The notes under the pieces are model-generated. The model searched no databases. It saw only the letters and a program-made list of their open reading frames with translations, and was not told the DNA's origin. The position numbers were made by a program, and so were the translations under genes. DNA of 53,928 nt, the filler included, from Jimgerdemannia flammicorona (lineage: Eukaryota), in the NCBI GenBank assembly GCA_003990765.1. It is 2 parts of 2 records of this genome, joined end to end, with 100 filler letters (N's around TTAATTAATTAA, not from the genome) between each part and the next. Parts side by side here need not be neighbours in the genome. Positions count along the whole stretch, not along the records: positions 1 to 26,914 come from RBNJ01000680.1; 1 more part is not named here. One strand, given 5' to 3'. The stretch's first letter is position 1, and each line of letters begins with the position of its first letter. Shown one piece after another: positions 3,659 to 47,904 of this stretch.

Positions 3659-3691
3659 ATTGATGATATATGTGATGTTGTCAATCAGCCT

Positions 3692-5716: not shown

Positions 5717-5804
5717 GTTGTTAGTCTCTTTTCACTAAAAATGATGTCAAAAGTACCTTCCAAAGGTTGTGTAACCTGAATGGTACTGGAAAGAGATGAC
5801 TGGC

Positions 5805-8800: not shown

Positions 8801-10400
8801 TTGTATAGACATATTCTCTGCCACCCTACCCCTTGAGACTGGATTCTTTCTGATAAAAGAAGGAGTGTCCTCCTAGACTTCAAATATACTATTTACATAT
8901 GGGTTATTACTTGGTGCCTTCCTGATCTCTTCCAGACCCTTCTCTATCTTTTCTCTACCTTTACTGGCCCAGACACTCACTTTGACTCCCCCAGTACTCT
9001 CAATGTCACCAGTATTCCTCTTTGTCTTCCTCTCTAGACTTGCTAGCAACTCTCTCTATCTCTTGCATCCTTAGAACCTCTCCTATAGTCCCTTATCAAT
9101 ATAGATGCACTTTCCATCCACTACCTCCAAATATATTAACTCTACATATATCTTCCAAGCCTTTACCCTCTGCTCTATTATACTACTCAACTCCTTCAAT
9201 ACCTCTAACAAATCCTCCTCCTCCTTCTTACTCCCCTTCACCCTTGTCATCTTACATATGAAGACCCTCTATACTATTACTAATAGTCAACTCTACATAT
9301 ATCTTCCAAGCCTTTACTCTCTGCTCTATTATACTACTCAACTCCTTCAATACCTCTAACAAATCCTCCTCCTCCTTCTTACTCCTCTTCACCCTTGTCA
9401 CCTTACATATGAAGACCCTCTATACTATTACTAATAGTCAATCACAAGTCTTCCCAGTAGCCTCCCTCTTAGCTAACTGAATCTGAACATTAATATTTCT
9501 GATCCTGAATGAGATCTCTTCTCAGATCCAAAACCCAACATCAACTATCTCTCCATACTTGGCCATGACCTCCTCAACTCTCCTTCTCATCTCTACAGTA
9601 GTCACTATGAGTACTTCTTTTACCATAAGTTGTACCACTCTGGGGTCTCATCTCAAGCAATATACTATTGGGATACACAACTCACCAATAGTTAGCTCAG
9701 CCTTCAGTATATTCTCTAATGGCCCAGCCTTCTCAAAGTCCACCTCTATCCCTTCCAAACTCCTTAGGAACTTTACAGATAATGCACTACCTATCTGCTT
9801 AGCAATCAGCTCTAAGATTATTTTTGCTATTACTACTAAGCCCTGGAAGTATAAAGTAACCACAAACTCCAAGATTAACTTTTTGAGTAATAGGGCCACC
9901 ACTAGGCCTATCACATCATCTATCAGGTCTCTCAATCATCTAGGCCCTATCTTCCCAACCTCACTATTAGCAGTTACATTTGGATTTTTTCCAAATTGTT
10001 AGTTACTGTTCTATCAGTAGTCACACTCCTAGCTATTATACTATCAGTCCTACTCTCTAACACTCCTAAGGAAGCCCCTTCTGGCCCCCCAACAGCAGCC
10101 TTCCCCTTACTACCCTACAGCCATCTATTCAGTCTAGCTGCTATACTCCTCTACTTGATCTTCTCAGCAAAGCTCATCTACTTCCCCTCTAGCCACACTA
10201 TGCCTCCTCCTCTACTGCTGCTGACCCCTCTTTCTTTCAATAAAGTGCTCAGTATTCCCAACCCTGCTCCCTGCCCCCTCTCTATATACTGCCAACCAAA
10301 TATACTGGGGCTACCCTACTCAGTACACTCTATAGAACTCCAATTTGAGGACATGTTCCTAAGATATTTCTCCAAAGAATGGTATAAAAATAGTTGATAT
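5805..10400 (-). mobile_element. LINE copy 2, same family, heavily decayed; its 3' ~1.3 kb is absent at the junction with copy 1
   Basis: Colinear with copy 1 from ~1305 upward. Remnants YTLFLEPL, VFTDN, YSGAKLN and ORF1 segment VIGLVVALLLKK...EGIEVDFE. Confidence 0.9.
9138..9441. repeat. 151-bp tandem duplication inside LINE copy 2
   Basis: AACTCTACATATATCTTCCAAGCC starts at 9138 and again at 9289. The units differ at about 3 positions, all C/T. Confidence 0.92.
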
Positions 10401-13400
10401 ATATTTGTATAATATGAGGTATATCAGGAAGAGGTTATAGCTCTGTATTGTACTTTATCCTATATATCTACTTGGATCCAATTACTTGATAGTTTAGTAA
10501 AAGAGATATTAGATCCTAGATACTATTCTTAATAAGCAAATCATATTTCTCATCTATCATATGTTTCCATTTCTTACTGTCCAGATATTGTATAGCCTTA
10601 TTATATGTGCTTGACTTACCAGAAGATATCACAATATATATACATTTGTATGCTTTGGTATTGCTTATATAGTCTTGATATTACTACTATCTAGAGCTTA
10701 CTGATATATCCCAATAACTTCCTAATTCTGAATACATCTCTCAGTATATATTGGAGTGTTTTTACATTTGTTTATCATTTATAGAAGATTCTTTACCATT
10801 AGAGGATTCACTATCATCTTCATCTTTAATCTCAGTGATCCTTAGCTCAGATAACTCTAGCTCAGATATATATAGTAGTTGAAAATAGTTTTAATTAACT
10901 ACTGGAATCATTGAAGATATTGGCAGTACCAGTTGTTGCACTAGCTAGAACATAGATGTAGAGATCTCTATAGATATTTCTATATAGATCTCCTCATTAT
11001 TTCCATTTTTATTAAATTGTACATTATGTGAAATTACTACATATATCTTATATATAGATTTCAAAGCCTATATAATTTTCCACTATATTCTAGAAGTATA
11101 TGCTTGACTACCTTTAGCTTGAATTTATACTAATTGATATTGTTTTTGTTGAGAATATATATTTTATAACTAAATATATATAGATAGGATATATTTGGCT
11201 TAGATCTACTTTATAATTCTTTAAGAGTAAAATTATCATCCTTATGTTTATTGTTGCTAGCTTTCTTACTTAGTGATCAAGATATATACTGATTGTGGAT
11301 ATATATCACTATGTTGATGGCTTCAGCCCAATAGGAATATCCTAGACTAGTGACATTGATCATTATATATGACATTTCTATAGCTATATGGTTAAATCAC
11401 TTGGCCACATCATTTTGCTGAGATATATAAGGAGCTATTATTTGATAACTTATACTGTATTTTGTCAAAAATTGTCTGAATACATTATTGATATATTTGT
11501 ATTCATTATCTAAGTATATAGTATATATTCTATATTCTATTTTATTCTTGGTAATTGTTTTAAATTTTTTAAATTTCTTTAAGACTTTGCTTTTCACTAA
11601 TAGGAAATATACATATGTCTTATATGTATAATTATTAATAAATATCAGAAAATATCTTTTACCAGAATATAATGGAATATATATTAGACTATATATATCT
11701 ATATGGATTAGATTGAGAATCTCTAAGATATACTTTAATCATTCTTTGAACAGTTACTAGGAAGCTTTGTTTTTCACATATACCTTACAAAAGTTATTCT
11801 CCAGATATATATATATATACCAGCAATATACTTACAGAGTTACTTCTTATCATACATATGTTTGAGGCTCATCTTGCTGATATATCCTAAGTATTGATAT
11901 TATATATTAAATATATTAAGTATAGTTATTATATAGAGAGGCTTTTATGTCATTTGGTATTCTATTAATTATATAAAGATTACTATATTTCAAGACTGTT
12001 ATTAGCTCATTGTCATGTGAATCATATGTATATTGTAGTACTCTTTGAATATATATAGATCTCCTTATTATTATGAGTCATCATTTTGCTAATAGAGAAG
12101 AGGTTCTTTCTTATCTCTAAAGTATACAGTATATCTATAAAAGTAGTAGTAGACTTGATGACATTTCTATAGAGATATATCCTCATATTTCTCTTTTCTT
12201 AAGCATAGATGACATTATTATCTCTTAGTTTGATAGGTACAGAGTACTTAAAAGACTTATATATAGAGAACTATTCTCTATATAGTATTATACATTGAGT
12301 GGCTCCAGAATCTATTAGCCAGATATTATTATCATTAGCTATATTGGTAGTATATTTATTAGATATATACTTGAAGAATATATGATTATTGATGATGTTG
12401 ATATTATTACCACTTTTTGTCAAATAAAAAGTATTTTGCTATTGACCAGAATTTATAGATAATAGGTTGGTAGATTTGGCAGTAGATCTTATACTGGCAG
12501 AACTAATATTAAAGATAGTAGAACTAGTAGCTTATATAAAAAATAGATTATTACTTTTATTAGTTTTAGTGGTATTTGTATTACTATACTTTTCTTAATA
12601 GTTCCTGTACCCATATTACCAATACTAGCTGCTTATTTTTATCACTCTCTATATCATTTTCTCAGCTATAGTAATAGTATTTCCTATGTCCATACTTACT
12701 GCAGTAATCACAGTAACCATCATACTTGGTTGATTGGCTAGACTGATTATTACATTGTTAAGCTTAGGGTTGGGTTTGTCCTCTTTAGTCTTATTGTTGA
12801 TTATACTTTTGACCTTATTTGACACTATGTCTGCAGGACTTATAGAAGGTGTTTTTGGTATTGTTAGCACCACTTCCTTGGCTCATTTCCTCATTTATAA
12901 GGCTTATTATTATATAGACAAAATCTGAAAGTCTCCCACTCTTATATATGGCTACTACTACAATATTATACATATCTAGAAGTTCTCTTATGAGTGCTAT
13001 AACCTTGTCTTTATTCTCAATACAATCTGCAGACATGCTGAGAGAATTCACTTAATTTACCAGATCATTGACATGACTAATATATTTATAGATGCTCTTC
13101 TTAAGCTTTATTTGAAGATTAAATAACTGAGATTTCAGATAGAATTAATTCAATATAGATGCTTATATGTAATGATTATATAGAGCTTTCTATGTCTCAT
13201 GAGCTATTATAGTATATATTATAAGCTTCATTTATAAGTTTAACAATATGAATACAATCTTATATAATGCTCAGTAATTATTTGTAATATTATAATCTTG
13301 AATTAGTACTTGTGGTTTTGTATACTCTGCCAAGCTACATTTGTTAAAGAGATTCATCATATGAAATATCCAAATGGTATAGTCTCTCTCATTGAAGATT

Positions 13401-13750
13401 AGGATAGACCTCTTGGCTGTATTTATACTAATAATTAGAACTGTATTTCTTACATATATCTATTGAGGTTATACTCATAGTTGGCAGAATGTTTGTAATT
13501 GGCATATCTATTTTCATACTTATATTACTAGGCTGATCATCAGACATTTCTAGTATAATATATTTTAAAGAGATATATTTATTTGCTATAGCTACTTAGT
13601 ACTAGTAGAGCTCATAACCTTTATTATAAAGAAAGGGGCATTTTATTGAAGTTGTATAAGTTACATATTTTATGCTTTATTAATGAATGATATAAATCTG
13701 ATGAAATAGCATAAGGTTACATACTGATATATTGAGTTGTTATTTCAATA
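10400..13750 (-). mobile_element. Ty1/Copia LTR retrotransposon relic (PBS, gag, protease, integrase, start of RT), truncated by LINE copy 2
   Basis: Minus-strand AGGTTATGAGC at ~13610-13620 is a typical Copia PBS-region motif. Gag PIFNERDYTIW (~13375-13410), protease IWLIDSGATQ (~12295-12325), integrase LIHIDI...GKRYFLIFINNY, KSKVLKKFKKFK...APYISQQNDVAK and YWAEAINIVIYI. Order PR-IN-RT. A short LTR at ~13621-13750 is uncertain. Confidence 0.85.
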
Positions 13751-13941
13751 CTCTCTTTGTTTTCTTCAGCTTTTTGATTTCTATAATCTTAGATTATAAT
13801 ATTGAAAAAATTAGCATCTATACTAATTAAATATTTTTATTTATAAAAGAGATTATAGAGTTGTAATTTCTGTAATAAATAGAATTTCTCTAATATAATC
13901 TAAATTGATAACTCTTTTTTCAATAAAGATTTCACTTTTGG

Positions 13942-16900
13942 TTTTTTTTTTTTTTTATAATTATTTAGACTTTTGCATTTATTACCATACTAATCTATAT
14001 CTATATAATATTATAACAAAGTTCTATTCTCTATCCAACTCTTCTGTAAGAACTATCTCTAACTACTTTTTGATTAAAAGTAATTACTCTCTCTACTTAC
14101 TTGAATCCTCTTTCCACTCTTTATATATTCTTTTTACTAGCCTATAGTATAGACTATTTCTAGGTCCTCACTCAGTCTACCACTCATTCAGCAACTCTAA
14201 CAATAGCCACTCCCACCTTGCTATTCTTATACCTAGAAATAATCTCTAGCTATTCTCAAAGATATATAGCTAATACCTAAAAAGACCAACCTATACTATG
14301 AGGGTCTACTCTACAGAAAGCTATTTATTGTCAACCTCTTCTCCATCACCAGTCATAACTATAAAGCACCCCACTGTCCTCCACCTACTCTTCTTAAAGA
14401 CTATACTCTCAACTAGCTCTCAATTATTAATATCTGACAGTATTTTGCACTCACCCAGTTAATGTTCTGAAGTCTGTACTACTCTACTCTCCTGTCTAAT
14501 ATTACTATAGCCTGGTAATGATAACTTTCATAACCAGCTTTTGATCTATATCCAGAAGTATTATTAGATACCAATTCTTCTACTTCTCTCTCATCTCCTT
14601 GTCCTTATACAGAGAGTCACCAGACCCATACATTGACCACCTATCTATACTCAGAGTCCATGACCTCATCACACATTAACTCTATTTCTTTCAGGACTAC
14701 CTCTACCCCTGCTATCTATTTTCAGAAGTTTCAGGATAAGTTATCCTCTCTGGAGACTGTTCTAAGACTAACCTCTACCAAGACCTTGAGGATCTCCTCT
14801 CTCTATACTGGATCTCAATCCTTCCAACCCCTCTGCTAAATCTGGATACCAGTCCTCCAAGTACTGCTCAATGGCCTGTATATTCTCACATCCATCTACC
14901 CCAGTAGTATAAACCCCTTCAATGATACCATATACTTAGACTGTCTCATCTCTGATTATATAACTCCCTACAAATCCTCTCTATTCAGCCCCTAGTACTT
15001 ACTGAGCCACATCTTGTAGCCTAGCCATCAGTATCTTCATAACTAGCTTGTGATCTATATCTAAAAGTATGATTGATCTCTAGTTTTTTTACTCCTCTCT
15101 CCTCTCCTTATTCTTAAACAACAGAGCCACAAAGTCCAAGTACTATTCCCCAATTTACTCTTCTGAACTAATAACCTCTTCTCACATATTGCCATTATCT
15201 CTTTCAGAATTAACTCAACTCCTACTATCTTTTTTCAAAATCTCATAGTAGGCTATCTTTCTCTAGTACTATCTCTGAGCTTATCATTGTCAGTACCTGC
15301 TGAATTTTCTCCCCTCAGACTGATGTACCAAGGTCATCTAAGCCCTCTACTAGATCTGAGTACCAGTCCTCTAGGTGCCTTTCAATGTCTAGTACCCCTA
15401 TCTCTCCTTTCTTCTCACTCTACAATTGCCTCTACTATTTGCTTAACTGGTCCAAAATCTCCAGTATCCTAATAACTAACTCTCTTGCCTCATTCAATAT
15501 CCCCTCCCATTACTGTTGTACTCTCCTCACCTATAGAAGTTATGATAAAAATTTTGTAGACTATTTCTCCTCTTCTAAACTCTGCCATCTCAGCTAGACC
15601 ACCATACTCTTAATCTGTAAGTCCTCCTCTTGCCTCAGCATATCCTTCAACTTCTCCACCTCCAGCCTAATCTGCTGTATTCTCCAATTCCTCTCTTCAC
15701 CATTATTCAACAGATCAGCCCAAGATACTAATAATCTCATCAACCTCCAGGAGGCCCACCTCACTTACTTCTTTCTCTAAGTACCCCACATTCTTTCTGC
15801 CTCTCCTCAGTACCATTGTGTATCTGATTTTAATCTCTGTCAGTAATCTCTAATTGCCAGCCCCTCTACTCTCTAGCTAAATATCCTAGAGCTAATGTTT
15901 ATCACCCATGTATCCTATAGAGAGACCTCTCTAAGCAATGAGAAATTTAGGCACCAATATCCAGGCCCCTCCCCACTTTCCCCTAAATATCCCTCTCCTA
16001 GAAGACTCCAGTGATCTGACCACAAGTACTGAATAGTTTTCAAAGTTCTCTAGATATCAACTCCTCAGCATTCAGTAGTTACATAACACTCAGTCAATCC
16101 TCAAGCCCAACTCTACCACTCAGTAAGTATAGACCCTACAATTCCCCTATTCAAGCCTCTCAGTATCCACTAATGAGCTCAGATGTTTGACTTCCTTTCA
16201 GACTTCTATACCATCATTCTTACCAGTCATTCTCCTTTCTCCATCAGTTCTGTCTATCTTTCTATCATATATTATATTAAAGTCTCTACCTAGACAGTCA
16301 ATCTCCACCTCTACCAATACTCTAGACTCCTGTAGTCCTCAAATCTATTTCACTCTCTCCCCTCTTTCTGCTGGACAATGATATGACTCAATTATTAAGA
16401 GCCTCTAGCCTGGTCTCTTCCAAACTCTCTATACTATCTTTTCTTTCCAATATCTAATATCCTCAATATCACTCCTATCCTTCCTAATCAGAATGCCTAC
16501 ATACTTATACCAAATTGCCACACTATCCCATTCCTTTGTCCAGTTCAGAATATCTAAGTCTCCCTCACATCTAACATCCTATAGTAGAAATAAATCTACA
16601 TCCAGCCCTTTTAGCCAGCTGAATATATTTCTATATCTCACTGCTCCTCATAATCCATTGATATTCAAAGAGAAGATTCTAGTTATACTGTTCATATTAA
16701 ATAATATTTTCAAAGAACAACTACCTACTCTATAATTCTATACTTATTATATCACCAGCAATATTCAGATTTCTTTCTGCCTCAAGCTCATCTGTCTCTC
16801 CCTGCTGAGTCTCCAATACCTCCAAGATTTCCTGATAATCTGCACTATCTACAGCTTCCATATTAGTCCAGTATATCTCACATACTACCTGCCACTTTGC

Positions 16901-17283
16901 TAGCCCCTTTCTTAGGCCCCACAGATAAGCAGCCTAGTCATTTGCAATTGTCTGAAGTATAGCTTCTCTTTCATTATCTACTTGATACTTCTCAGCTTCC
17001 AGCAAAGCTACTATTATCTCATCTCAGAGTTTCTGCAGCACCTCTTCACCTTACAGGATTTCTCTCCAGTACCTCTTACTAAGTACTCAAAAGTTCTCCT
17101 CTCTCAGCTCCTCAGCCACTATATTCTCTAGTATATTCCACAGCCACTTCTTCTCATCAATCATCTCCTCTACTCTCTGGGCCACTCCTTTTCCCCCTTC
17201 TACCTGCTCTCTCTCTCCATTTATCTTTGCTGACTCATTTCAATTCTTCTCTAATATATTCTGTAGTTTATCATCTCCTCTAG
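13942..17283 (-). mobile_element. LINE copy 3 (diverged subfamily; probably two nested or deleted fragments), cut in ORF1 by Gypsy A
   Basis: T-run at 13942-13957 followed by a 3' end resembling copy 1. The RT N-terminal segment appears twice (~14500-14860 and ~15010-15370). The endonuclease start ATGAACAGTATAACTAGAATCTTCTCTTTGAAT lies at ~16663-16695. Confidence 0.8.
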
Positions 17284-19316
17284 TGTAAGAGGGTTACTTT
17301 TTAGAGTGACCATTATGTAGTTCTGGAAGGGTTTTCTGGAAGTTCTGGATATTCTGGAAGACTGTTTTCTTATGGTCAAGATCAATTTTGTATGGAGTAC
17401 ATCCTCTATGCTTATTGATTTCAAGATTGAGTTGACATCTCAACCAAAGTCCTTTTTTTGGACTAGTTCTGGATGTTCAGAATTTTCCGTATTTCAGAAA
17501 GTTCAAGAAACTAAGACCAGCTTAGTTGAATTGGCATATCGCTGCAGACAACACCCAATTAGGAAATTTCGTGATGGGGTTAGGAGTAGGACCTAACAGG
17601 GAGCGGATTTACTTAAGAGTGGTTTGTGGGTTATGGAATAGGTTTATTTGCTATTCATGATATTGCTATACTAGGAGTATTTGTGTGAAGGGATATTGTG
17701 GGGAAGTGCTCAGGAGTTGTGTTCGGATTGTTCAAGTCTGAGATTCTGAGGTCTGGGGGAGGGGGTATTTATACTAGTGAGGGGCTATCTGGACTATGCT
17801 AGATATGGATGTAGCACTAAGTGCCTTGCTGAGTCGGAATGCAGTCACGTAGTATAAGTGTGATCTGACATATCAAGAGATTGTCTGACTGCTGAGTCAG
17901 TTCACAGTCACATCGTACAAGGCTAATCTAAGTATACTATGACTGCTAGGCTATTTATGGGTTTAGGCACTGTCTGGGTAGTCTTCAATGACATCACCAT
18001 TGATTGCATCATCTCTGATGAAGTAGTCATCTAGGAAGAGTGGTTCGCGGATTACTTCTCCTTGTTGGCTGAGGTAGTAATACATTGGGACTTCATCTCT
18101 GTCCCACAGGATAGCATTGTCTGTCTCGTAGGCTGGATAAGGTGTTGGTGGATGAAGGATGGGTGTATTGTCTTCGCTTTCATCAGATTCACTATCTGCG
18201 TACCTTATATAGGTTACAGCACTATGAGTTGCAGGGTTGTAGTAAGCTGGTAGCTATGGTTCATGTCACTCATATTCAGGTGGTGGGGTTGTTGGTTCGA
18301 TCTCTAGGGTTGTCTGGAGGTACAGGTTGTGTTCTCCAGTCTCTTCATTATAATTGAAGTAATCAGGGGTGAATGCGGGTTGGTATTCATACCAGTGATC
18401 ATTGTCCCAATAAGTCTCGTATGTAGTTATGAACTGTTGCAAGTTCATCGGTAAGTTTGGTGGTGTGATCAGGGTTGGCAGAGATCCTTGGCTAGAGGTC
18501 ATGTTGGCATCAGAGGGATCATTGTCTTCTGCTTCATCTTCGTTGAAGTGGATTATATCGTAGATGTCCTTTATGGCGTATCTGACTTGAGGCATTTGCA
18601 GGATGTAGTCATCAGGGTGCAGGAAGGTTCTGTCTGTGGTTTCGACATACTTGAGGTACTTGTGGTTGAGTTCTTGTATCATGTCATCAATTTGGCCATA
18701 GGACAGGGTAGCAACCATTTCGCTGGTAGTAACTCGGAGGTGGGGAATAAAGGTGTTGTACTCATAGAAGAGTTCTCGATGTTTGCGGGCGATGAGCTTC
18801 TGGTGTTGAGACATCTGGGTAATGTCTGTATCATGGTGGTGTTCGACCATGTCTTCCAGGAGGCGGCTGATCTGGTAGTAGCTTGAGATTTGTCCGATTT
18901 GGTGGGCCTTACTAAGTATGTTCAGAGTGTTCCATCGGGCTTCCATGAAGTAGAGGGGTGCTAGGCTATGGATATTCATGAGGAGCAGAGGGGGTGTGGC
19001 TCGGTTGACAATGGCATTCCAAATGTCAGCACAGATGTGGTTGTAGATCTCAGTGGTCATGTTTATGTGTTTGGAAGTTGTGGTTGTTGTTTGTTTTGGT
19101 TCTCTGATTCAACGCATCTCGGTGCTCAGTATATATGCATTTGGTCCTGATTGGTAAGATTCCGTTTGTGTAGATCTTGTGTTCCGTGACTTCATATTGA
19201 CTCAGCTTTGTGCACTGTGACTTTGGTTTGACTCAGCTTCGTGATCAAGCAGGTGATTTCCAGATTTGTTCGGAGATTGCGTGTGATTTCAGTGGCTTGG
19301 AGGTTGTGCGCTTACA
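17284..19316 (-). repeat. 3' LTR of Gypsy A (2033 bp)
   Basis: Minus strand reads TGTAAG...CTTACA. It follows the PPT directly and is colinear with 22868-24943. Confidence 0.95.
17963..19060 (-). pseudogene. LTR(U3)-encoded accessory ORF of unknown function; 264 aa open, ~365 aa reconstructed
   Basis: ATG at 19060, open to TGA at 18266. The same frame continues to TAA at 17963 (1098 nt total). The homologous frame is present in the solo LTR. Confidence 0.8.
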
Positions 19317-19330
19317 ACTCTCTCCTTCTT
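19317..19330 (-). other. Polypurine tract of Gypsy A
   Basis: AAGAAGGAGAGAGT abuts the LTR-initial TG; the same arrangement recurs at ~32824-32837. Confidence 0.85.
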
Positions 19331-19741: not shown

Positions 19742-19910
19742 CTAGTTGTTCAAGGAATCATATTCTTGAACTAGGTCAGTAGCATTCTGGAGATTGGTCT
19801 TGGGTTCCCAGGTTGCATCGTGGATCGGGTAACCTTTCCATTTGACAAGGTACTCGGGATGGTTCTTGTTACCATGTTTGTTGAGGATTTGTTCAACTTC
19901 GTATTCTTCT
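19742..19910 (-). pseudogene. Chromodomain at the integrase C-terminus
   Basis: Minus-strand translation EEYEVEQILNKHGNKNHPEYLVKWKGYPIHDATWEPKTNL. Confidence 0.92.
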
Positions 19911-22862
19911 TGGTCATTAATGATGATAGGTGCAGGTGGTTTGGTAGTTCAGTTTGGAAATAGCTCGTCATCATTGTCATTGTATCGCTTGAGACGTTGA
20001 ACATTAAAGACTGGGTGAATATTAATAGTGTCTGGTAGCGCCAATTTGTAGGAGGTTGGAGAGACTTGTACAATGACTTCGAATGGTCCAATGAACTTGC
20101 TGTTCAGCTTTGTGGATGGTCTGTGCTTGAGGTTGTCAACTCGGTATCCTCTGATGTCCAGTAGGACTTTTTCTCCAATATCAAAAGTTTCTTCTTGGCG
20201 GTATTGGTTAACATACTGTGACTGTTGTTCTTGAGCTCGTGATAAATTCTCAATTGCGATCTGGCTTAGATTGCACATTCGGAGTAGGAATTCTTCAACA
20301 GCTTCGACTGTGGAGGGTTCTTCAGTAGTTCAGATAAGTGTCAAAGGGGTGTTCGGGTTTTGTCCAGTATTGGCGAAGAATGGGGTCATTCCAAGAGAGG
20401 CTTGCTTACTGTTGTTGTAGGCAAACTCAACTGCGGTGAGGTGTTCATGCCAATCATCTTGTCTATAGGAAACATAGTTCCTTAGCATTTGTTCCAGAGT
20501 TTGGTTCATTCTTTCGGTTTGGCCATCAGTTTTAGGGTGAAAGGCTGTGGATAGTGCAAGTTTCGTTCCAAGGTGTGCATGGAGGGCTTTCCAAAAGTGA
20601 CTGGTGAATTTCAGATTTTGGTCACTAACAATGATCTTGGGGAGACCATGATAGCGGAAGATGTTGTCAAACAAGAGTGTGGCTATGTCTGGTGCTGTTG
20701 CAGTAGTGGTAGTAGGTACAAAGTGGGCTTGTTTGCTGAGATAGTCCACAAAGACAACAATTGCATCCTTCCCGTTCTTGGTTCGGGGTAGTTGTACAAT
20801 GAAGTCCATAGAGATTTGTTCCCAATTTGCGGATAGTACTGGAATAGGGTGGAGTAAGCCGGGTTTTGCTAGTGTTGAGGACTTGTTTCGTTGGCAGGCA
20901 TCACAGGAAGTGATGTAGGTTTTGAGCTGATCTGCTATGCGGGGCCAAAAGAAGTTTCAGGAGATAACTTTATAACATTTATCAAATCCTAAATGTCCAG
21001 CTGTAGGGGCATCATGACATTCGAATAGGATAGTCCTTCGGAGGTCTCGGTTGTTTGGAACATACAATCTGTCCTTGTAGTAAATCGCATTGTCCTTGAG
21101 TTGGTATTGATTGTACCGGGTATGCTTGTCAGCATCATCATTGTTCAGGATTTCTCGGAGTGCTTGAGCTTCTTTATCATCAATACATGCTGCGATGATT
21201 TATTCCATGATAGTGTTGGTAACCAAGGTCAGGGTTTGGATAACCTCTTTGATTGGTGATCTGGAGATTGCATCAGCAACAATATTTTCCTTGCCAGGGC
21301 GGTACTGAATTTCGTAGTCAAAGTTGGTGAGGACTTTCATCCATCTGGCTTGCTTTCAAGAAAGGGTAGCCTGGGTCTTGATGTTGACTAATAACTTGTG
21401 GTCGGTCAATACAGTGAAGTGTGCTCCTTCTAGATATGGTCGCCATTTGATCAGAGTGTCTACGATGGCTAGCATTTCTTTTTCGTGAGTTGCGTAGTTG
21501 ATTTTGGCATCATTGAACTTGCAGGAGTGATAGGCTACAGGGTGTCCTTCTTGCATGAGCACTGCTCCAAGAGCTAGGTCAGAGGCATCAGTGGTGACTT
21601 CGTATAGTAGGGCAGGGTTTGCCGCTTGAAGTACTGGTGTGGTTATCAGAGCATCTTTCAGTGCTTGGAAGGCGGTATCTTGTTCGGGTCCCCAATTTAC
21701 AAGATTGTTGAAGTCTTTCTCTTGTTTCATGGTCCAAGGTTGTTCTTGTTTCTTGTTGTGCTTGGTCATTTGGGTGAGGGCAGTAGCGATTTTAGCAAAG
21801 TTGGCAACGAATCGCCTGTAATAGTTTGCTAATCCCAGGAATGACTGGAGGTCTTTCAGCTTCTTCGGTCTGGGCCAATCTTTGATTGCAGAGATTTTGC
21901 TGGGGTCCACTTTGATTCCATTTGGAGTGACAATGTGTCCAAGGAATTGAATTTCTTTCAGAAGAAATTCACACTTGCTGAGTTTTGCAAAGAGTCGGTT
22001 TTCTCGGAGTTTCAGTAGTACTAGTTCAAGGTGTTCGAGATGTTCCTCTAGGGTTTTGCTGAAGACCAGGATATCGTCAATGTAGACAACAATGAATTTG
22101 TCCAGGTATGGATGTAGAATAGTGTTCATCAGAGTCTGGAAGGTTGCTGGAGCATTAGTTAAGCCAAAGGGCATAACCAGGAACTCGAAGTGTCCATAGC
22201 AAGTTCGGAAGGCTGTCTTGTAGATGTCTTCTTCTTTCATAGCAATTTGCCAGTAACCATTTCGCAGGTCAAAAGAGCTCATGAATTGTGAGTTGGTAAG
22301 TCTATCGAATATTTCATCGATCCTCGATAGTGGGCAACAGTTCTTGATGGTCTGCTCATTGAGATCACGGTAGTCAATGCACATTCGTAGGTCTCCTCCT
22401 TTCTTGACAACAAAGAGAACTGGTGCACCATAGGGTGATACGCTGGGTCTGATGAATCCTTGTTCTAGGAGTTCGTCGATTTCCTTCTTGAGTGCATCAA
22501 TTTCTCTTGGAGACATGTGGTAGATTGACTTGAAGGCTGGTTTGGCATCTTGTATAGTTTTGATTGCATGGTCTACTACTCGTTTGGGAGGTAGGCCTTT
22601 CAGGAGCTTCTTTGGGAATATGTCTTGGAATTTCTGGAGTAGTGGTCTGACACGGCTGTCAACTTTGGAAAAATCTTCTTCAGAGTTCTCGGGTTCTCCT
22701 TTGGATGGTCGGATGGAGATAGCGAAGAGAGGGCATTTCTTGGCCAATTTCTTGAGTTGTAGCTTGTTGATGTAAGTGATCTTTAGTCCAGGGTCACTGG
22801 AGTTGCGTGGGTCCTTTTCGCCTTGTAGTTTGAAGTTGTGGTGTCCTTTCTTGATGGTCAGA
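19911..22862 (-). pseudogene. Gypsy A pol: RT, RNase H, integrase
   Basis: ORFs 21356-22747 ([38 protein letters not shown]), 20330-20809 and 19949-20278, with a few stops. Confidence 0.95.
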
Positions 22863-22867
22863 GAATA

Positions 22868-24943
22868 TGTAAGCGCACAACCCCCAAGCCACTGAAATTA
22901 TACGTCGCCCTCTGAACAAGCCACTGAAATCACACGCGACCTCCAAACAAATCTGGAAATCACCTGCTTGATCATGGAGCTGAGTCAAACCGAAGTCACA
23001 GTGCACAAAGCTGAGTCAATACGAAGTCACGGAACACAAGATCTACACAAACGGAACCTTACCAATCAGGACCAAATGCATATATACCGAGCACTGAGAT
23101 GTGTCGAATCAGAGAACCAAAACAAATAATAACCACAACTTCCAAATACACAAACATGACCACTGAGATCTACAACTGCATCTGCACTGACATTTGGAAT
23201 GCTATTGTCAACCGAGCCACACCCCCTCTGCCCCTCATGAATATCCATAGCCTGGCACCCCTCTACTTCGTGGAAGCCAGATGGAATGCCCTGAACATGC
23301 TTAACGAGGTCCACCGAATCGGACAAATCTCAAGCTACTACCAGATCAGCCGCCTCCTGGAAGATATGGTCGAACACCACCATGATACAGACATTACCCA
23401 GATGTCTCAACACCAGAAGCTCATTGCCCACAAACATCGAGAACTCTTCTATGAGTATAACACCTTTATTTCCCGCCTCCGAGTTACTACTAGTGAAATG
23501 GTTGCTACCCTGTCCTATGGCCAAATCGATGACATGATACAAGAACTCAACCACAAGTACCTCGAATATGTCCAGACCACAGACAGAACCTTTCCGCACC
23601 CTGACGACCACATTCTGCAAATGCCTTAAGTCGGATACACCATGAAGGATGTCTACGATATAATCCACTTCGATAAAGATGAAGCAGAAGACAATGATCC
23701 CTCTGACGCCGACATGACCTCTAGCCAAGGATCTCTGCCAACTCTGATCACTCCGCCAATCTTACCAATGAACTTACAACAGTTCATAACTACATATGAG
23801 ACCTATTGGGACAATGACCACTGGCACGAATACCAACTCGCGTTCACCCCGACTACTTCAACTATAATGAAGAGACCGGAGAACACAACCTGTACCTCCA
23901 AACAATCCTAGAAATCGAACCAACAACCCCACCACCTGAGTACGAGTGACTTGAACCACAGCCGCCAGCTTACTACAACCCCGCAACTCATAGTGCTGTA
24001 ACCTATAGAAGGTATGCAGACAGTGAATCCGATAAAAGTGAAGACAGTACACCCATTCTTCGCCCACCAACACCTTATCCAGCATATGAAACAGACGATG
24101 CTATCCTGTGGGATGGAGATGAGGTCTCAATGTATTACTACCTTAGCCAATAAGGAGAAGTAATCTGCGAACCACTCTTCCTAGATAACTACTTCATCAG
24201 AGATGATGCAATCGATGGTGATGTCATCGAAGACTACCCAGATAGTGCCTAAACCTATAAATAGTCTAGCAGTCATAGTATAGTTAGATTAGCCTTGTAC
24301 AACGTGACTGTGAACTGACTCAGCAGTCAGACGATCTCTTGACATGTCAGATCACACTTGTACTATGTGACTGCATTCCGACTCAGCAAGGCACTTAGTG
24401 CTACATCCATATTCAGCATAGTCCAGATAGCCCCTCACTAGTATAAATACCCCCTCCCCCAGACCTCAGAATCTCAGACTTGAAAAACAGACTTGAACAA
24501 TCCAAACACAACTCCTGAGTACTTTCCCACAATATCCCTTCACACAAATACTCCTAGTATAGTAATATCATGAATAGCAAATAAACCTATTTCATAACCC
24601 ACAAACTACTCTTAAGTAAATCCGCTCCCTGTTAGGTCCTACTCCTAACCCCATCACAAAATTTTCTAATTGGATGTTGTCTGCAGCGATACACCAATTC
24701 AACTAAGCTGGTCTTAGTTTCTTAAACTTCCTGAAATATGGAAAATCCTGAACATCCAGAACTAGTCCAGAAAAGGACTTTGGTTGAGACGTCAACCCAA
24801 TCTTAAAATCAATAAGCATAGAGGATATACTCCATACAAAATTGATCTTGACCATAAGAAAACAGTCTTCCAGAATATCCAGAACTTCCAGAAAACCCTT
24901 CCAGAACTATGTAACAGTTACCCTAAAAAGTAACCCTCTTACA
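22868..24943 (+). mobile_element. Solo LTR of family A (2076 bp) inserted antisense into Gypsy A pol between PR and RT
   Basis: TGTAAG...CTTACA termini. TSD GAATA (22863-22867) / GAATG (24944-24948). The pol frame rejoins across it (MIDWVNHS|LTIKKG). TATAAATA at 24442-24449. Confidence 0.95.
23156..24252 (+). pseudogene. Second copy of the U3 accessory ORF
   Basis: MTTEIYN...DYPDSA*. Interrupted by TAA at 23627, a 1-bp deletion near 23850, TGA at 23947 and TAA at 24151. Confidence 0.8.
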
Positions 24944-24948
24944 GAATG

Positions 24949-25270
24949 GTTTACCCAATCAATCATGGAGTTCTCTTGTTTTAACATAGAGTTCCAAGAA
25001 TGATTTCATTATCAGGGAGTAGTACGATTTGGAGGGTAATATGTACTCAGTAGTCGCCAATTCGGAAGGGTAGATTGCGGACTTCTTTGCTAATAACATG
25101 TGAGGTTCCATTAGCTGTAGCAACTGCTTGAGTTTGCTGTACTGGAGAGATGAAGACCTTGAGTCTGTTGGCTGATTCTTCATTGATGAAGTTGCCTGAG
25201 GCACCACTGTCTATCATAATCTTGACAGGTGCTCTGTTGACAAAAGCCTTAAGGGTGAGTAGTTTGTCTG
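24949..25270 (-). pseudogene. Gypsy A aspartic protease
   Basis: APVKIMIDSGASGNFINE...VATANG...IILG. Confidence 0.9.
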
Positions 25271-25481
25271 ATCTAATGGTGGTGATTTCCGTTGTAGGAG
25301 CCTTTCTTCTGTTGGTTCTTCTTTGAGCCAGTTCGTTGACATAAGAGAAGCAATCATCAATCATTCGGGAAGAGTACATTCCAATACCATGAGGGCATCG
25401 GCCACTTGGTACATATCCATCTTCTATCTTCTTGTAGAATTGTTCTTCTTTGCTCACAGTAGGTTGGGCTGGGGCCTTGTT

Positions 25482-25889
25482 TGATGAGCCAAATCCTTTG
25501 GATTCTCAGATGGTAGGTAGTAGTTCAGGGACTTCCTTGACTGTCAGGGTTGACTCGATTTTTTCGAACAAGATCTGGGCAATGCAGAAGCCAATAGGGA
25601 TCTTGAAGGGTGTCCAACTGTGGTTTCGGATGAGGACAATGATTTCGCCTATGTAATCCTCATCAATGACTCCTCCTTCTACTGAGAGTTCTTTCAGTGC
25701 TAGGCTACTGCGACAGCATATTCTTCCAACATATTCTTCAGGGATTTGGATACTGATTCCTGTATAGACTTGTTTGACTTCTCAGTTGGAAACAGTAGCT
25801 TCTTCGGCTGCATACAGGTCATATCCGACTGCTTTTTGACTTCCTTTGGTTGGGGCCTTAGCAGTTTGTCTTAACTTGACAAAGTCTAG
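25482..25889 (-). pseudogene. dUTPase domain of Gypsy A, between the nucleocapsid knuckle and the protease
   Basis: Translation gives AVGYDLYAA, RSSLALK, GGVIDEDYIGEI, IAQILF and KGFGSS (motifs 1-5). It is in frame with gag and has two TGA stops. Confidence 0.92.
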
Positions 25890-25949
25890 TGTTCTGGTGG
25901 TCAGATTGTTGAGGTGGTGAAGAGTGGTAACAGTTGCTCATGTTGCTGT

Positions 25950-26909
25950 TCAGGGTTTTCGGTTGGGGCAGGCACTGACCATGTGTCCTGTCTTTCGGCA
26001 ATAGAAGCATGCTCTGCTTCTTCGAAGTTCATTTCTTTCACCTTCAGTAAGTTTCTTGAAGGTACTGGGCTGGGTGGGTTCAGGATTTCTGGGCATCCAA
26101 GAGGTGGATGTGGAGGGAGCTTGGGATGCTTCATGCTTGGGTTCTTCTTTCTTGGTCCAAGTCTTTTCCTTGTTGTTGAATTGCCTTCGGGGCAGAATTG
26201 GTCCAGCTGTTAGAATTCGCTTGACCATGGTCTTGATTTTTGCCAGACACCATTGTTGGTGATTGCAACCAACTGGGCGGCCTTGTTCTTGGATTTTTCT
26301 AGTGAGCCATTCAAGCAGTGCATCGAATAAATGGTCTGCTCTTGTACCATTTCATGCTTCATCGTTGGCAATATATCCTAGGCCAACAGTATTCAGGAGT
26401 GACTCGAGTTTTATACAGAAGGTTTCGAATTCTTCTTTGCCATGTACATCAAATTTGAGATTGCGGAGTTTTACTCGAGATTCGGCAATCATGGTCTCGC
26501 TGCGATATTGAGCAATCATGAGTTGTTTAAGTCCAGGGGCTGCAGGATGGGCTCCATATCCTGGGGCATTGTTTGCTGCATTCTGAGCAACTACTGCAGG
26601 TCGGGTATCCCATGGGAGGGGTTTTTCAGGAAGGGTTCGCCACCATTCTTCGGCAGGTCCTCGGAAGAATGTAACAACTCAGCAGACATAGGCTGTAGTT
26701 GTAGCAAAGAGTTGTTCCAGGGTGTGGTCTTGATTGTTTGTCAGAACGCGGTCAGCAACTCGTTCATTAGTCCATTGATTGGCTTCAAAGTTGGTGTCAA
26801 CTACACTAATGAAGCTTTGGACTTCTTGTGCAGTACCATTGAAGGTAGGTAGGCTCAGATTTTTGGTAGGTCGGATCTGTTCAGCTAAGGCAGTAATGGT
26901 TGCTGCCAT
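25950..26909 (-). pseudogene. Gypsy A gag
   Basis: Starts MAATITALAEQIRP...LPTFNG and ends KLTEGERNELRRSRACFYCRKTGHMVSACP. Confidence 0.88.
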
Positions 26910-26914
26910 TATAG

Positions 26915-27014
26915 NNNNNNNNNNNNNNNNNNNNNNNNNNNNNNNNNNNNNNNNNNNNTTAATTAATTAANNNNNNNNNNNNNNNNNNNNNNNNNNNNNN
27001 NNNNNNNNNNNNNN
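26915..27014. other. Assembly gap with artificial linker
   Basis: 44 N + TTAATTAATTAA (stops in all six frames) + 44 N. Confidence 0.97.
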
Positions 27015-31682: not shown

Positions 31683-31687
31683 CAAAA

Positions 31688-34068
31688 TCAACTGAGTTGA
31701 GTTTGTTTATAATAATATCAAACAAGCTTCCCTCAGAATAATCTCATTCTTTATCAATATAGAACAAAACTCAACCACTTCTCTGATCCTTATCAGAACT
31801 ACAGATAAACTCTCTACTGTTGAAGCTATTGAGGAATTCTTACTTTGAATATGCAACCTGAGCTAAATCACAATTGAAAACCTATCTCAAGCTCAATATC
31901 AATAATCTTATATCAATTAGTACTACTGAGAAGAAACTTTTAATATTAGAGAAAAAGTTCCACTAGATATCTGAGGATACTGAGTTGATAACCTTCAGCT
32001 CAGACCCTCTATAAAGCTGAACAGTAAGTTCATCAGACAATTAAAAATTATTGCACAAGTTACTCCAATATTCTATAAACTAGCCCTACTGAATTCTATT
32101 AAGACATACTAAGTCTTCAATGTTCAACATCTCAAGCAATATAATGAAAATGACAATGGACTATTCTCAAATCAAACTACAAAACCACTAGTACCTATCA
32201 TCATTAATGACTAAGAAAAATACAAAGTTGAGCAAATTCTTTACAAATATAGCCACAATAATCACCTAGAATATCTGGTCAAATGAAAAGATTATTCAAT
32301 CCACAATGCTATATGAGAATCTAGAATAAACCTTCAGAATACTACTAACTTAGTTCAAGAATATGACTCCTTAACCAACTAGGCCAACTCACTCTGACAT
32401 CTACCATTACTATACTATATTACCTTTTCTGAACACTGTTATAGTATTCTTAAAATTATCATGAACAAAATCAAAGACTCTGCTATATCTTAGCAAAATG
32501 AGACAAAAGAAATACAGATCCTCTAGAGAAATAGCAAAACTGAAAGTCAGCCTATTCTCCTAATATCACTGATAGGAAATGAGATATCAATATTTAAGAA
32601 AATTCTATAAAGGAAATTCTCCAGCAGTGAATGATATCAGAATTACTTCTGGTGTACAGTATTAAATACATGACTCTTGAATATGTGAATTCAATATATT
32701 AGGCAACTGTACTACAAGCACACTACTTTCTGAGAAAAAAGAACATTATCAGACTTTTGAGCATCTCAATGGTGTAACAACACTAGACCAAATTCGAAGA
32801 TCTTGATGAGAATGTCAAAAACTAAGAAAGAGAGAGTTATAAGCATACAATCTCTAAGCCACTGAAATTGTACATTACCCTCAGAACAAATCTGGAAATT
32901 ATATTCAAGATTACAAAGATGAGTCAACTTGAAGTTACAGAATACAAGATATATAAAATTGAAACCTTACTAATTAGGACCAAAAGTATATATACTAAAT
33001 ATACAGTATATCAAAACAGAGAACCATAATGAACCAAAAACTATAACTATAAACTCTCAAACATATACTCAGCCACAATTACCAAAGTCTACAATGCTTC
33101 TATACTGACATTTAGAATACCATTATCAACTACACTACAGCACTTAGGTCTCTTATGAATATTTATAACTTAGCACCTCTCTATTTTGTAGAAGTATGAT
33201 AGAATACTCTAAATATACTTGGTAAAGATAAAATACCTCTTCTCTGCTCACCAACATTATACTCAGCATATGAAACTGATGATGCTATCCTGTGAGATGA
33301 CAACTTTATTCTAATATACTACTATATGAATGAATAAAGAGATATAATCCAAGAATCCCTCCTTCCTAAAAACTACATCATAAGAGATAATATTATTGAT
33401 AGCGATCTTTCAAAGAGTATCCATATAGTGTCAAAATCTATAAATAGCTTAACAGTTATTAGCATAATTAGATTAGCCTTATACTAGATAACCATATACT
33501 AACTCAGCAGTCAGTTGATCTTTTGACATATCAGTTTACCTTTTGTATTATATAACTGCATTCTGACTCATTAAGCACTAAAGTACTATATCTATATTTG
33601 GCCTAGTCCAGCAAGTCCCCCATTAGTATAAATATCTCTATCACTAAACCTCAGAAACTCACAAGAATACTGATAAGAATACTTTCCCACAAATATTCCT
33701 TCACATACTTCTCCTAGTATTAGCCAATAGAAATATTATAAATAGTAAATAAATCTATTTAATAACTCACAAATCACACTTAAGTAAACTTATACTATAT
33801 TATATCCTACTCCTAGCTAGATCTAGAAAATACCTAATTGTATATTGTCTGCAACAATATGTCAATTCAACTAAGCTGGTCTTAGTTTCTTAAACTTTCT
33901 AAAATAAGAAAACCTAAATATTTAGAATAGATCCTAGAAAGGACTTTGGTTAAGAAGTCAATCTAATCTTAAAATTAATAAGTATAGAGGATGTACTCTA
34001 TATGAAATTGATCTTGAAAAATAGTCTTTCAGAACTATGTAACAGTACTCTAATAAATACTCCTTTAT
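31688..34068 (+). mobile_element. Decayed 3' fragment of Gypsy family A (integrase end, chromodomain, PPT, LTR ~32838-34068 with internal deletion)
   Basis: Colinear with the reverse complement of 20435-17284. The LTR starts TATAAGCATAC (= TGTAAGCGCAC). About 0.7 kb of the U3 ORF is missing near 33227. Confidence 0.9.
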
Positions 34069-45312: not shown

Positions 45313-45314
45313 TT

Positions 45315-45332
45315 TGGGGGCTCAACTGGGAA
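45315..45332 (+). other. Primer-binding site, tRNA-Pro-like
   Basis: TGGGGGCTCAACTGGGAA lies 2 nt after the LTR-terminal CA and resembles the retroviral tRNA-Pro PBS TGGGGGCTCGTCCGGGAT. Confidence 0.7.
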
Positions 45333-45399
45333 AGATTTTAAAATCAATGTGACTTTTCAGCTCATAAGAACCCATAGTCAAACTGGATACATTTGATAC

Positions 45400-47720: not shown

Positions 47721-47904
47721 GGTGACCAGCTATGAGCAATCAAAGAAGAAGAAGAAGGTCACTATCCAAGAAAAATATGCCAGCAGTGAAGAATCTACCA
47801 CAGAGGAGAAAGAAGAATCCGAAGATGGAAACAATCCCAGACTTAATCCCTGGATCAACCTAGTGGATGATAGGCCAGAAGACAATGTATGGGTCAAGAA
47901 TACT

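Follow-up and report, generated by a model that had tools for sequence, protein, structure and literature searches.

We describe here a protein-coding gene, now inactivated, that lies wholly within the U3 region of a chromovirus long terminal repeat (LTR) in the fungus Jimgerdemannia flammicorona, and whose reality is supported by shuffling tests, by the pattern of substitution between LTR copies and by protein homologues. The gene was found in a 53,928-nt stretch of DNA (the window) in which two parts of assembly GCA_003990765.1 are joined by 100 filler letters; the host is of a kind common in soil and most likely subjects its DNA to RIP-like hypermutation. We consider it highly probable that this is a real, selected accessory gene, and reasonably likely that the 2-kb LTR of this dUTPase-bearing element carries it as an extra gene of the element's own. 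That the LTR holds a promoter belonging to the gene itself is a tentative reading of the motifs present, and a specific role in regulating how the LTR is transcribed or silenced is doubtful.

The chromovirus and its LTRs

The element is decayed, and its recognizable domains are an NC finger, dUTPase, PR, RT-RNaseH, IN, SH3 and a chromodomain. The pol order PR-RT-RNaseH-IN with a C-terminal chromodomain, all on the minus strand, identifies it as a chromovirus (Pfam families Asp protease, RVT_1, RT_RNaseH, rve, Integrase_H2C2, SH3_Tf2-1 and Chromo). Its upstream part (25047..26351, minus strand; Pfam and tblastn) comprises the CCHC zinc knuckle of NC (25950-26351; Pfam/tblastn), a dUTPase with one stop, read as X (25551-25904; Pfam, E 1.1e-29), and the aspartyl protease (25047-25505; Pfam), such that the dUTPase is placed between the NC finger and PR. 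The pol part (19949..22897, minus strand; Pfam) contains RT and RNase H (21356-22897), the integrase (20330-20956) and SH3_Tf2-1 (19949-20329), and ends in the chromodomain (19745..19948, minus strand; Pfam Chromo, E 5.4e-18). An ESM Atlas query with the RT matched a mixture of taxa (Chordata, Arthropoda, Streptophyta, Basidiomycota and Ascomycota) and points to no particular host. A polypurine tract, AAGAAGGAGAGAG (19318..19330, minus strand, read directly), is located directly upstream of the 3' LTR. The TG..CA LTRs, the polypurine tract that adjoins the 3' LTR and a target duplication within the expected 4-6 bp are likewise those of a chromovirus (Ty3/gypsy, Metaviridae), the duplication being known for a solo LTR only, with the element's 5' LTR outside the window. 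Elsewhere in the window, 4.5-kb repeats at 1300-10300 contain S/T/P-rich long frames that are open on both strands and are composition-driven.

Three copies of the LTR are present. Copy A, the 3' LTR (17284..19316, minus strand; 2033 nt, TG..CA), was delimited from its sequence and by alignment with copy B, and contigs from other public runs diverge exactly at 17284 and 19316; it contains an AATAAA that is a candidate poly(A) signal (17643..17648, minus strand, read directly). Copy B (22868..24943, plus strand; 2076 nt), aligned to A with 92% identity, interrupts this same element between its PR and RT, in the inverted orientation, and so is a solo LTR. It is flanked by GAATA (22863-22867) and GAATG (24944-24948), a 5-bp target duplication with one transition. 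Copy C (32840..34034, plus strand, from alignment) is about 72% identical with strong C>T/G>A hypermutation, and lacks LTR positions ~409-1166, so that most of the ORF is missing; it is preceded, at 31909-32738, by a piece of the 3' internal region of the same element in inverted orientation.

An ORF within the LTR and its breaks

In copy A the ORF occupies 17963..19060 on the minus strand (LTR positions 257-1354; 365 codons plus stop), reading in the element sense from an ATG at 19060 to a TAA at 17965-17963, and its identification is based on the shuffle test, codon-position bias and homologues described below. As the earlier note had claimed, it is wholly inside the TG..CA LTR, in element sense and upstream of the TATA box, ending 190 nt before the TATAAATA box (17773-17766). 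An in-frame upstream ATG (19117-19115, minus strand) is situated 19 codons before the annotated start, and the gene is thus about 365 codons long, or 384 counted from this ATG. In copy A the frame from the upstream ATG is closed by a private TGA (19111-19109, minus strand), where copy B and ~98-100% of the contig depth of runs X1 and X2 have CGA.

All three LTR copies in the window are broken, the breaks consisting of stops of the C>T type, one frameshift and one large deletion. Copy A has a premature TGA at codon 265 (18266..18268, minus strand), common to copies A and B, and a TAG at codon 269 (18254..18256, minus strand) that is CAG in B; the homologue P0002 (see below) has Gln at each of these positions. 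Copy B of the ORF (23156..24252, plus strand, from alignment) has TAA at codons 158 and 333, both of which are CAA in copy A, TGA at codon 265 (23947-23949), and a 1-nt deletion in codon 232. The solo LTR does then carry a copy of the ORF, as had been expected of solo LTRs, but the equal length of 1098 nt claimed for the 3' LTR and solo copies is not upheld, since the frame in copy B is 1097 nt. Similarly, single C>T changes, proposed in the note for the stops, do not cover every break, the copy B deletion being of another kind.

The stop at codon 265 merits separate consideration. CGA is plausible as the ancestral codon, and we estimate that ~10% of ancestral CpG sites would change to TG in both copies independently; a TGG>TGA change would likewise be a single transition, and P0002 carries Gln. 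As A and B both have the TGA, the frame of their immediate ancestor may have been cut to 264 codons already.

Coding potential and selection

A run of at least 264 open codons was seen in none of 1000 dinucleotide shuffles of the LTR (maximum 206), and at least 365 codons with at most two stops were likewise seen in none of 1000 (maximum 274), while the other five frames of the LTR contain 17-57 stops. These observations bear on an alternative in which there is no gene and the long frame simply results from a sense strand that is G-poor and A/C-rich. Long composition-driven frames do occur elsewhere in the window, in the repeats at 1300-10300, but the shuffles and the stop-laden alternative frames, together with the homologues, the periodicity of the codons and the signal of selection, make this explanation scarcely credible.

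Within the ORF, 98 sites differ between copies A and B, distributed over codon positions 1, 2 and 3 as 27/16/55, and the differing codons comprise 46 synonymous and 43 nonsynonymous. We compared these with a context-dependent neutral simulation (n=2000), in which 38% of differences are expected at position 3 and 35% to be synonymous; the observed 55/98 was reached in 0/2000 simulations and the observed synonymous value in 1-2/2000. The earlier note had raised the prospect of neutral substitution, and the A/B differences depart from it in both their third-position and synonymous excess. The position-three bias persists past the shared TGA (9/5/16 in codons 266-365), and is weak in the first 114 codons (7/7/12). 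In view of this weak bias in codons 1-114, and because P0002 starts at Met115, the N-terminal portion may be under less constraint or may not in every case belong to the gene.

ORF variants from other copies in the public runs show a similar tendency, in that eight of the 13 best-supported are third-position and synonymous, among the 40 variants listed of 376, which do not include codons 265 and 269. Among the indels listed (12 of 16), four inside the ORF make up two compensating +1/-1 pairs, one contig each, and eight others fall outside it. The codon-position composition of the ORF is that of the element's RT and IN, and its codon frequencies correlate with those of pol at 0.62 in frame versus 0.21 and 0.11 out of frame. 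At the level of sequence comparison, the A/B differences show that purifying selection acted on the gene in the active lineage.

Homologues and family assignment

Among 1.84 billion representative proteins searched, only two real relatives were found. P0002 (247 aa) is 65% identical and 82% similar across residues 115-364; its two gaps are in frame, Gln occupies both stop positions, and its C-terminus coincides with that of the ORF. P0003 (128 aa), at 88% identity, has the same starting Met as the ORF. Both are in the protein database because they are open, and their intactness is subject to ascertainment bias. The DNA of the homologues had no match in metagenome, viral or genome contigs, and a search of proteins of 30-69 aa gave no relative.

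These relatives are pertinent to a second alternative, that the ORF is a captured host or foreign gene fragment without element function, conserved only through recent amplification. This would be in keeping with the broken state of every copy in the window, the tiny size of the family in databases, and copy C, whose lack of most of the ORF indicates that LTRs without it can persist. However, it does not account for the third-position and synonymous excess over a context-matched neutral model, nor for an open relative at 65% identity with in-frame gaps only and the same stop; moreover, the codon usage is that of pol and no related cellular protein is seen among the 1.84 billion representatives. 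We give the captured-fragment explanation a small chance, and favor a selected gene belonging to the element.

Pfam has no family for the ORF protein at E up to 10, and none for P0001, P0002 or P0003, the core LTR-element domains (Gag/CA/NC, PR, RT, RNase H, IN, Env) included. A tblastn search of the window with the ORF protein matched the LTR copies and nothing else. A match to a known LTR-element core domain, which the earlier note had specified as counting against an accessory gene, is therefore not seen by Pfam or tblastn. A PDB sequence search gave no match better than E 0.49; this top profile match, SKA1, covers just 26 residues and was rejected, as were unnamed ESM Atlas clusters with a top score of 0.82, below the 0.9 lead level. 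P0004 (E 5.6e-6) is spurious, being a protein of 70-aa repeats in which one 38-residue stretch is matched six times, and it also has 24 unrelated weak Pfam matches. An AlphaFold2 model of the read-through protein from a four-row alignment has a mean pLDDT of 32.5 and a pTM of 0.28, too low for use, and a relationship with a known domain at the level of the fold is conceivable. By the sequence searches, the protein appears to represent a new family with no homologue of known function.

Properties of the ORF protein

The ORF protein has a pI of 4.4 and is acidic and hydrophilic, without a transmembrane segment (peak 19-residue Kyte-Doolittle mean of 1.02). Neither a DNA-binding domain nor a basic cluster is seen by Pfam or in its composition. 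As the earlier note described, the C-terminal half is acidic and proline-rich, with 34 acidic and four basic residues, 27 aromatic residues and 19 prolines among 163. The N-terminal half is probably helix-rich, and the very acidic, aromatic/Pro-rich C-terminal half probably disordered.

PPxY motifs bind WW domains, and the earlier note had proposed that the protein uses two of them to recruit a Nedd4/Rsp5-type ubiquitin ligase, in the style of a late domain. The motifs themselves were correctly described: PPEY is present at residue 260 in both copies, and ten residues further on is LPAY in A and PPAY in the aligned frame of the solo copy B. Recruitment through them is nonetheless very improbable, as P0002 has no [LP]PxY anywhere, with PLSEY and PLAY at the corresponding places, and when the C-terminal half is shuffled, one or more PPxY appear in 22% of trials and two or more [LP]PxY in 5%. 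In addition, a conserved HPPTPYPAY block is incompatible with the [LP]PxY pattern.

Promoter-like modules and transcription

The ORF is situated between two promoter-like modules. The main LTR promoter module, read from its motifs, is downstream of the ORF (17766..17899, minus strand) and includes a TGACTCA (17899-17893, minus strand) and the TATAAATA box (17773-17766, minus strand). The upstream module (19130..19235, minus strand), whose motifs are read and whose promoter function is putative, contains two TGAGTCA sites (19235-19229 and 19204-19198), a CCAAT (19154-19150) and a TATATA (19135-19130) located 70 nt before the ATG, all on the minus strand, and these motifs are kept in all three LTR copies (A, B and C).

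Four public runs, all as contigs, bear on transcription, of which two are merely guessed to be RNA, and contig depth cannot rank the parts of the gene. In the presumed RNA runs, depth is >100-fold higher just downstream of TATAAATA (17585-17738) than at 17739-17815, which is weak evidence; in the DNA runs contig depth is flat across the same bins. One contig runs into sequencing adapter at 17721. The ORF part is covered in the presumed RNA runs by few low-depth contigs only, with heavy cover downstream of TATAAATA. These data point weakly to the TATAAATA box as the start of the genomic RNA, placing the ORF in U3.

A different arrangement is conceivable in which the TATATA at 19135-19130 is the genomic promoter, and the ORF is within a very long R and is the first cistron, as are ORF0/ORF1 of plant Tat/Ogre elements. 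The attraction of this model is that a complete promoter-like module, kept in all LTR copies, stands 70 nt ahead of the start codon. By established LTR structure, however, an R of about 1.5 kb would be unusual, and there is a second, stronger TATAAATA box with its own TGACTCA downstream of the ORF, past which the depth in the presumed RNA runs rises more than 100-fold and a contig ends in adapter at 17721, although this last evidence is weak. Plants are known to have extra 5' ORFs located upstream of gag, Retrosat2 ORF0 being an example (PMC3485330). Overall we see only a slim chance for a long R, and prefer the placement of the ORF in U3.

With the ORF in U3, we propose that it would be transcribed from the TGAGTCA x2/CCAAT/TATATA promoter within the LTR, using the LTR poly(A) signal. 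Each LTR, solo LTRs included, would then be a self-contained transcription unit, and the protein would act in trans on the element family. Our best guess is a regulator of transcription or silencing in which the acidic/aromatic tail could be an activation or host-factor-recruiting region. Taken as a whole, the model in which the LTR is a complete Pol II gene (bZIP-site/CCAAT/TATA promoter, ORF and poly(A)) and its protein activates or de-silences the family LTRs in trans, in convergence with MMTV, is unlikely. If true, the accessory gene would be present twice per retrotransposon and each solo LTR born by recombination would stay a working copy, giving a fungal retrotransposon's equivalent of the regulators of complex retroviruses, in a host where repeats are methylated and hypermutated.

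Relationship to known systems

The closest architectural parallel is MMTV, which has an ORF (sag) in the U3 of its LTR and a dUTPase upstream of protease (PMC3026287). The parallel drawn in the earlier note holds as architecture, with a ~1 kb protein ORF inside an unusually long LTR and a dUTPase (25551-25904) upstream of the protease in the same element. The ORF protein nevertheless has neither sequence similarity to Sag nor any Pfam match, and its bearer is a Ty3/gypsy chromovirus without env in a fungus, whereas the host of MMTV is a mammal. Sag is a type II membrane glycoprotein with one transmembrane segment, and the ORF protein, with its peak hydropathy of 1.02, differs in having none.

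Other accessory genes also make use of LTR sequence. Foamy-virus Tas/Bet and HIV Nef are encoded by genes that start in the internal region and overlap the 3' U3, so that LTR sequence doubles as gene as it does here, but those genes merely overlap U3. Tas, expressed from an internal promoter, is a transactivator whose activation region is acidic, and the composition of the ORF C-terminal half (34 acidic, four basic and 27 aromatic residues of 163) would by analogy fit Tas/Tax-like transactivators. The LTR of Cassandra TRIMs carries an independently transcribed 5S RNA gene (Pol III), again a gene in an LTR, although an RNA gene transcribed by Pol III and not a protein gene.

The brtn gene of Botrytis cinerea, which Zhao et al. 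are said to have reported in 2011 as antisense and internal, is comparable, by description alone, as an extra gene in a fungal gypsy element, but differs in that the ORF here is LTR-borne and in element sense. In PMC8365987, brtn of Boty/BcGypsy1 is given as an extra gene of unknown function. Plant Ty3/gypsy elements with long LTRs (Retrosat2/RIRE3/RIRE8 ORF0, Ogre/Tat) have additional ORFs (aORFs) that are lineage-specific and of unknown function, evolve faster than pol and have no homologues outside their family (PMC3485330 and PMC7264820). The ORF described here is similar in being lineage-specific and without homologues outside its family, in an element with long LTRs. The plant aORFs are, however, internal (either separating the 5' LTR from gag or following pol and preceding the 3' LTR), single-copy and lost on solo-LTR formation; the present ORF is encoded by the LTR itself, beyond the polypurine tract and downstream of the TG end, and does not have the location of an internal aORF.

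A full-text literature search returned MMTV sag alone and no LTR-borne protein gene in a retrotransposon, and we note that a table of fungal chromoviruses with an 'add. ORF' entry (PMC2864245) could list a comparable element. Known extra genes of LTR retrotransposons occupy the internal region, and a selected gene wholly in the LTR differs in its consequences, as it is present in two copies per element that are homogenised by reverse transcription, and it stays behind in thousands of solo LTRs when elements are removed by their main route, LTR-LTR recombination. If the protein regulates its own family, at the level of transcription or of silencing, it would provide a tractable fungal model of counter-defence encoded by a transposable element, and a striking convergence with a complex retrovirus, a dUTPase and a U3 gene being combined in both.

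Results and discussion

The locus is a nest of retroelements. The minus-strand element is a decayed Ty3/gypsy chromovirus in which we recognize, all on that strand, a CCHC knuckle (the NC zinc knuckle, 25950-26351), a dUTPase (25551-25904; Pfam E 1.1e-29, one internal stop read as X), an aspartyl protease (25047-25505), RT with RNase H (21356-22897), an integrase (20330-20956), an SH3_Tf2-1 domain (19949-20329), a chromodomain (19745-19948; E 5.4e-18) and a polypurine tract (19318-19330), directly after which LTR copy A begins (19316-17284, 2033 nt, TG...CA). Its ends at 19316 and 17284 are marked independently, as contigs of other public sequencing runs depart from the alignment exactly there. 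LTR copy B (22868-24943, plus strand, 2076 nt, 92% identical to copy A) is inserted between PR and RT of the chromovirus that carries copy A, and because it is flanked by GAATA and GAATG, a 5-bp target duplication, it is a solo LTR. The partial copy C (32840-34034, plus strand, about 72% identity) lacks LTR positions ~409-1166 and is preceded by an inverted fragment of the chromovirus 3' end. The chromovirus 5' LTR is absent from the window; two short N runs at 26352-27206, at the gag-side end of the element, make its 5' end and 5' LTR untraceable. The dUTPase has the NC zinc knuckle on one side and the protease on the other, the betaretrovirus position. Chromoviruses with a dUTPase have been described in basidiomycetes and in Tuber (PMC2864245).

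Copy A encloses an ORF of 365 codons, reading in element sense from the ATG at 19060 to the TAA at 17965-17963 and spanning LTR positions 257-1354, with TATAAATA (17773-17766) beginning 190 nt downstream of its end. The earlier note had proposed this ORF as an accessory gene in U3, and direct reading of copies A and B bears out its coordinates and motifs, while adding a frameshift in the solo copy that had been overlooked, a 1-nt deletion in codon 232. Copy A carries premature stops at codons 265 (TGA) and 269 (TAG), copy B at codons 158 (TAA), 265 (TGA) and 333 (TAA), and every copy of the LTR gene in the window is dead. Upstream of the ATG at 19060 the frame extends 19 codons to another at 19117-19115, with a single TGA between them (19111-19109) that is private to copy A, since the codon reads CGA in copy B, as it does in 98-100% of the contig depth of two public runs (X1 and X2). 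Either Met (19117 or 19060) may be the true start, and the database protein P0003 starts at the downstream one. The longest of three frames antisense to the gene is open for 143 codons (18455-18886, plus strand), and we attribute it to mirroring of the sense ORF.

Several lines of evidence argue that the ORF was a gene. When the LTR was shuffled 1000 times with its dinucleotides preserved, no open frame of at least 264 codons arose (maximum 206), nor did a frame of at least 365 codons with two or fewer stops (0/1000, maximum 274), and the remaining five LTR frames have 17-57 stops each. Base composition at each codon position is that of the RT and IN of the element, with G at 0.27 in position 1 vs 0.10-0.13 in positions 2 and 3, and C at 0.39 in position 3; codon frequencies correlate with those of pol at 0.62 in frame vs 0.21 and 0.11 out of frame, and the non-coding remainder of the LTR is devoid of such periodicity. 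Copies A and B differ at 98 ORF sites, by 91 transitions and 7 transversions; 27 of these sites are first, 16 second and 55 third codon positions, and 46 of the differing codons are synonymous and 43 nonsynonymous. We compared this with a neutral model in which the mutation rate of each site follows its dinucleotide context, with rates taken either from the entire LTR or from the LTR outside the ORF. Under this model 38% of the differences should fall at position 3 and 35% of the differing codons should be synonymous; the observed 56% was attained in 0/2000 simulations and the observed 52% in 1-2/2000. Because these excesses surpass the neutral simulations, purifying selection acted during part of the divergence of the two lineages. 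By segment, differences at positions 1/2/3 number 7/7/12 in codons 1-114, where the position-3 bias is weak, 11/4/27 in codons 115-264, where it is strong, and 9/5/16 in codons 266-365, where it is also present. Among other copies in public runs, 8 of the 13 best-supported ORF variants (within the best 40 of 376) are third-position and synonymous, and of the indels seen in 12 of 16 rows, four lie within the ORF and form two compensating +1/-1 pairs, with eight more outside it. The shuffles, the position-3 excess and the pol-like codon usage, together with the relatives described below, support the proposal of an accessory gene in U3.

When 1.84 billion representative proteins were searched exhaustively with phmmer, the ORF protein had three matches, and word-indexed protein searches yielded no further relatives. 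P0002 (247 aa) aligns to ORF residues 115-364 at 65% identity and 82% similarity, with two in-frame alignment gaps of two residues each, and ends one residue from the ORF C-terminus; it has Gln at both stop positions. P0003 (128 aa, truncated by a contig end) is 88% identical and has the same MTTEIY start. The third match, P0004, is a spurious repeat match. The TGA at codon 265 is common to copies A and B. The CpG observed/expected ratio is 0.45 in one copy and 0.56 in the other. CpGs retained in one, both or neither put the share of ancestral CpGs lost from both at an estimated one third, and about 10% would be expected to have turned into TG independently in both. Given that latter expectation, the parallel CGA>TGA change suggested in the earlier note is plausible at this codon, although an inherited stop or a TGG>TGA change could also account for it. 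Coding-type substitutions downstream of the TGA and the open homologue P0002 lead us to favour an ancestral frame of ~365 codons.

The protein itself is acidic (pI 4.4), and residues 201-365 include 34 acidic, 4 basic and 27 aromatic residues and 19 prolines, with neither a transmembrane-grade hydrophobic stretch nor a basic cluster in the whole protein. It matches no Pfam family at E up to 10, its best match in a PDB sequence search has E 0.49, it has no neighbour in the Atlas at 0.9, and a window-wide similarity search finds the LTR copies only. With a mean pLDDT of 32.5 the AlphaFold2 model is unusable; it draws helices in residues 3-170 and little structure beyond. The window copies carry PPEY and LPAY/PPAY, replaced at the same places in P0002 by PLSEY and PLAY, and PPxY arises in 22% of shuffles of the C-half; since the motif is not kept and chance supplies it this often, we have dropped the idea of ubiquitin-ligase recruitment through PPxY.

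Near the start of the LTR, within its first 256 nt, a short direct repeat holds two TGAGTCA sites; CCAAT comes next and then TATATA, placed 70 nt before the ORF ATG, and a similar module of TGACTCA and then TATAAATA lies 3' of the ORF. TGAGTCA is the bZIP/AP-1/Gcn4-type consensus. All TGASTCA sites are kept in copies A and B and two remain in the hypermutated copy C; window-wide the motif is not enriched (13 found vs 10.8 expected). A transcript from the first module would traverse the ORF and could end via the LTR's own AATAAA (17648-17643), a candidate poly(A) signal, and given such a transcript each LTR would be a self-sufficient gene. Contig depth, which cannot rank parts of a gene, is 0-22 over the ORF and 300-8900 at 17277-17738 in two runs whose RNA label is a guess; in two DNA-type runs it is flat. 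A sequencing adapter terminates one contig at 17721. These observations fit a main start at the downstream TATAAATA, with ORF-containing RNA low at best in those samples, and the contig depths are a weak pointer to the ORF lying in U3 rather than R. Our best guess is that the protein would act in trans as a regulator, with the LTR itself driving its expression.

Among the public runs listed, 20 from 12 studies, for the most part soil metagenomes, have contigs with parts of the LTR, and the pieces are very numerous (3954 matching in X1); we conclude that the family is high-copy in an organism common in soil. Differences between copies are overwhelmingly transitions, and in copy C they are polarised, with C>T (104) and G>A (60) far outnumbering the opposite changes (16 and 12) and favouring CpA/TpG, a RIP-like pattern. 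Together with the fungal records of dUTPase-bearing chromoviruses, these features suggest that the host is a fungus, probably an ascomycete.

A full-text literature search brought up sag of MMTV as an LTR-borne gene, and no retrotransposon whose LTR contains a protein-coding ORF. The likeness to sag is one of position only; the LTR protein shows neither homology to Sag nor a matching membrane topology. The brtn gene of Boty is antisense and internal. Boty, of Botrytis, carries this gene (PMC8365987), and plant extra ORFs such as ORF0 of Retrosat2 are found in the internal region upstream of gag (PMC3485330). The searched text of a review makes no mention of LTR-located ORFs (PMC7264820), and the MMTV LTR, at 1.3 kb, is described as long because it encodes Sag, in a virus that also encodes a dUTPase (PMC3026287). 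We file the LTR gene under the 'additional ORF' phenomenon, with both its location and its protein family new.

A second LTR retroelement occupies 44118-53169 (plus strand), with LTRs of about 300 nt that are 91-93% alike, spaced 8750 apart and devoid of an ORF; its RT is at 49771-50763 and its dUTPase (48920-49375) is 36% identical to that of the LTR-gene chromovirus. A ~4.5-kb unit is present in three copies, 61-80% alike, at 1300-10305 and 27206-31708, two of them in tandem (spacing 4503). The units have an extreme GC skew (about -0.5 on the plus strand) and long S/T/P-rich frames open on both strands that look composition-driven, and weak minus-strand RVT_1 fragments (27397-27579, E 2e-6; 1251-1616, E 1.6e-3) suggest that they are decayed copies of a non-LTR or other retroelement. 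Blocks of 23-30% G+C lie at 10300-14200, which has no detectable similarity elsewhere in the window, and at 32000-35000, which is the hypermutated copy C. Finally, a pair of 169-nt direct repeats (35493-35661 and 40988-41156, 76% identical, 5.5 kb apart) may be another decayed LTR element, and frames near them show weak similarity to one in the second element (47701-48153).
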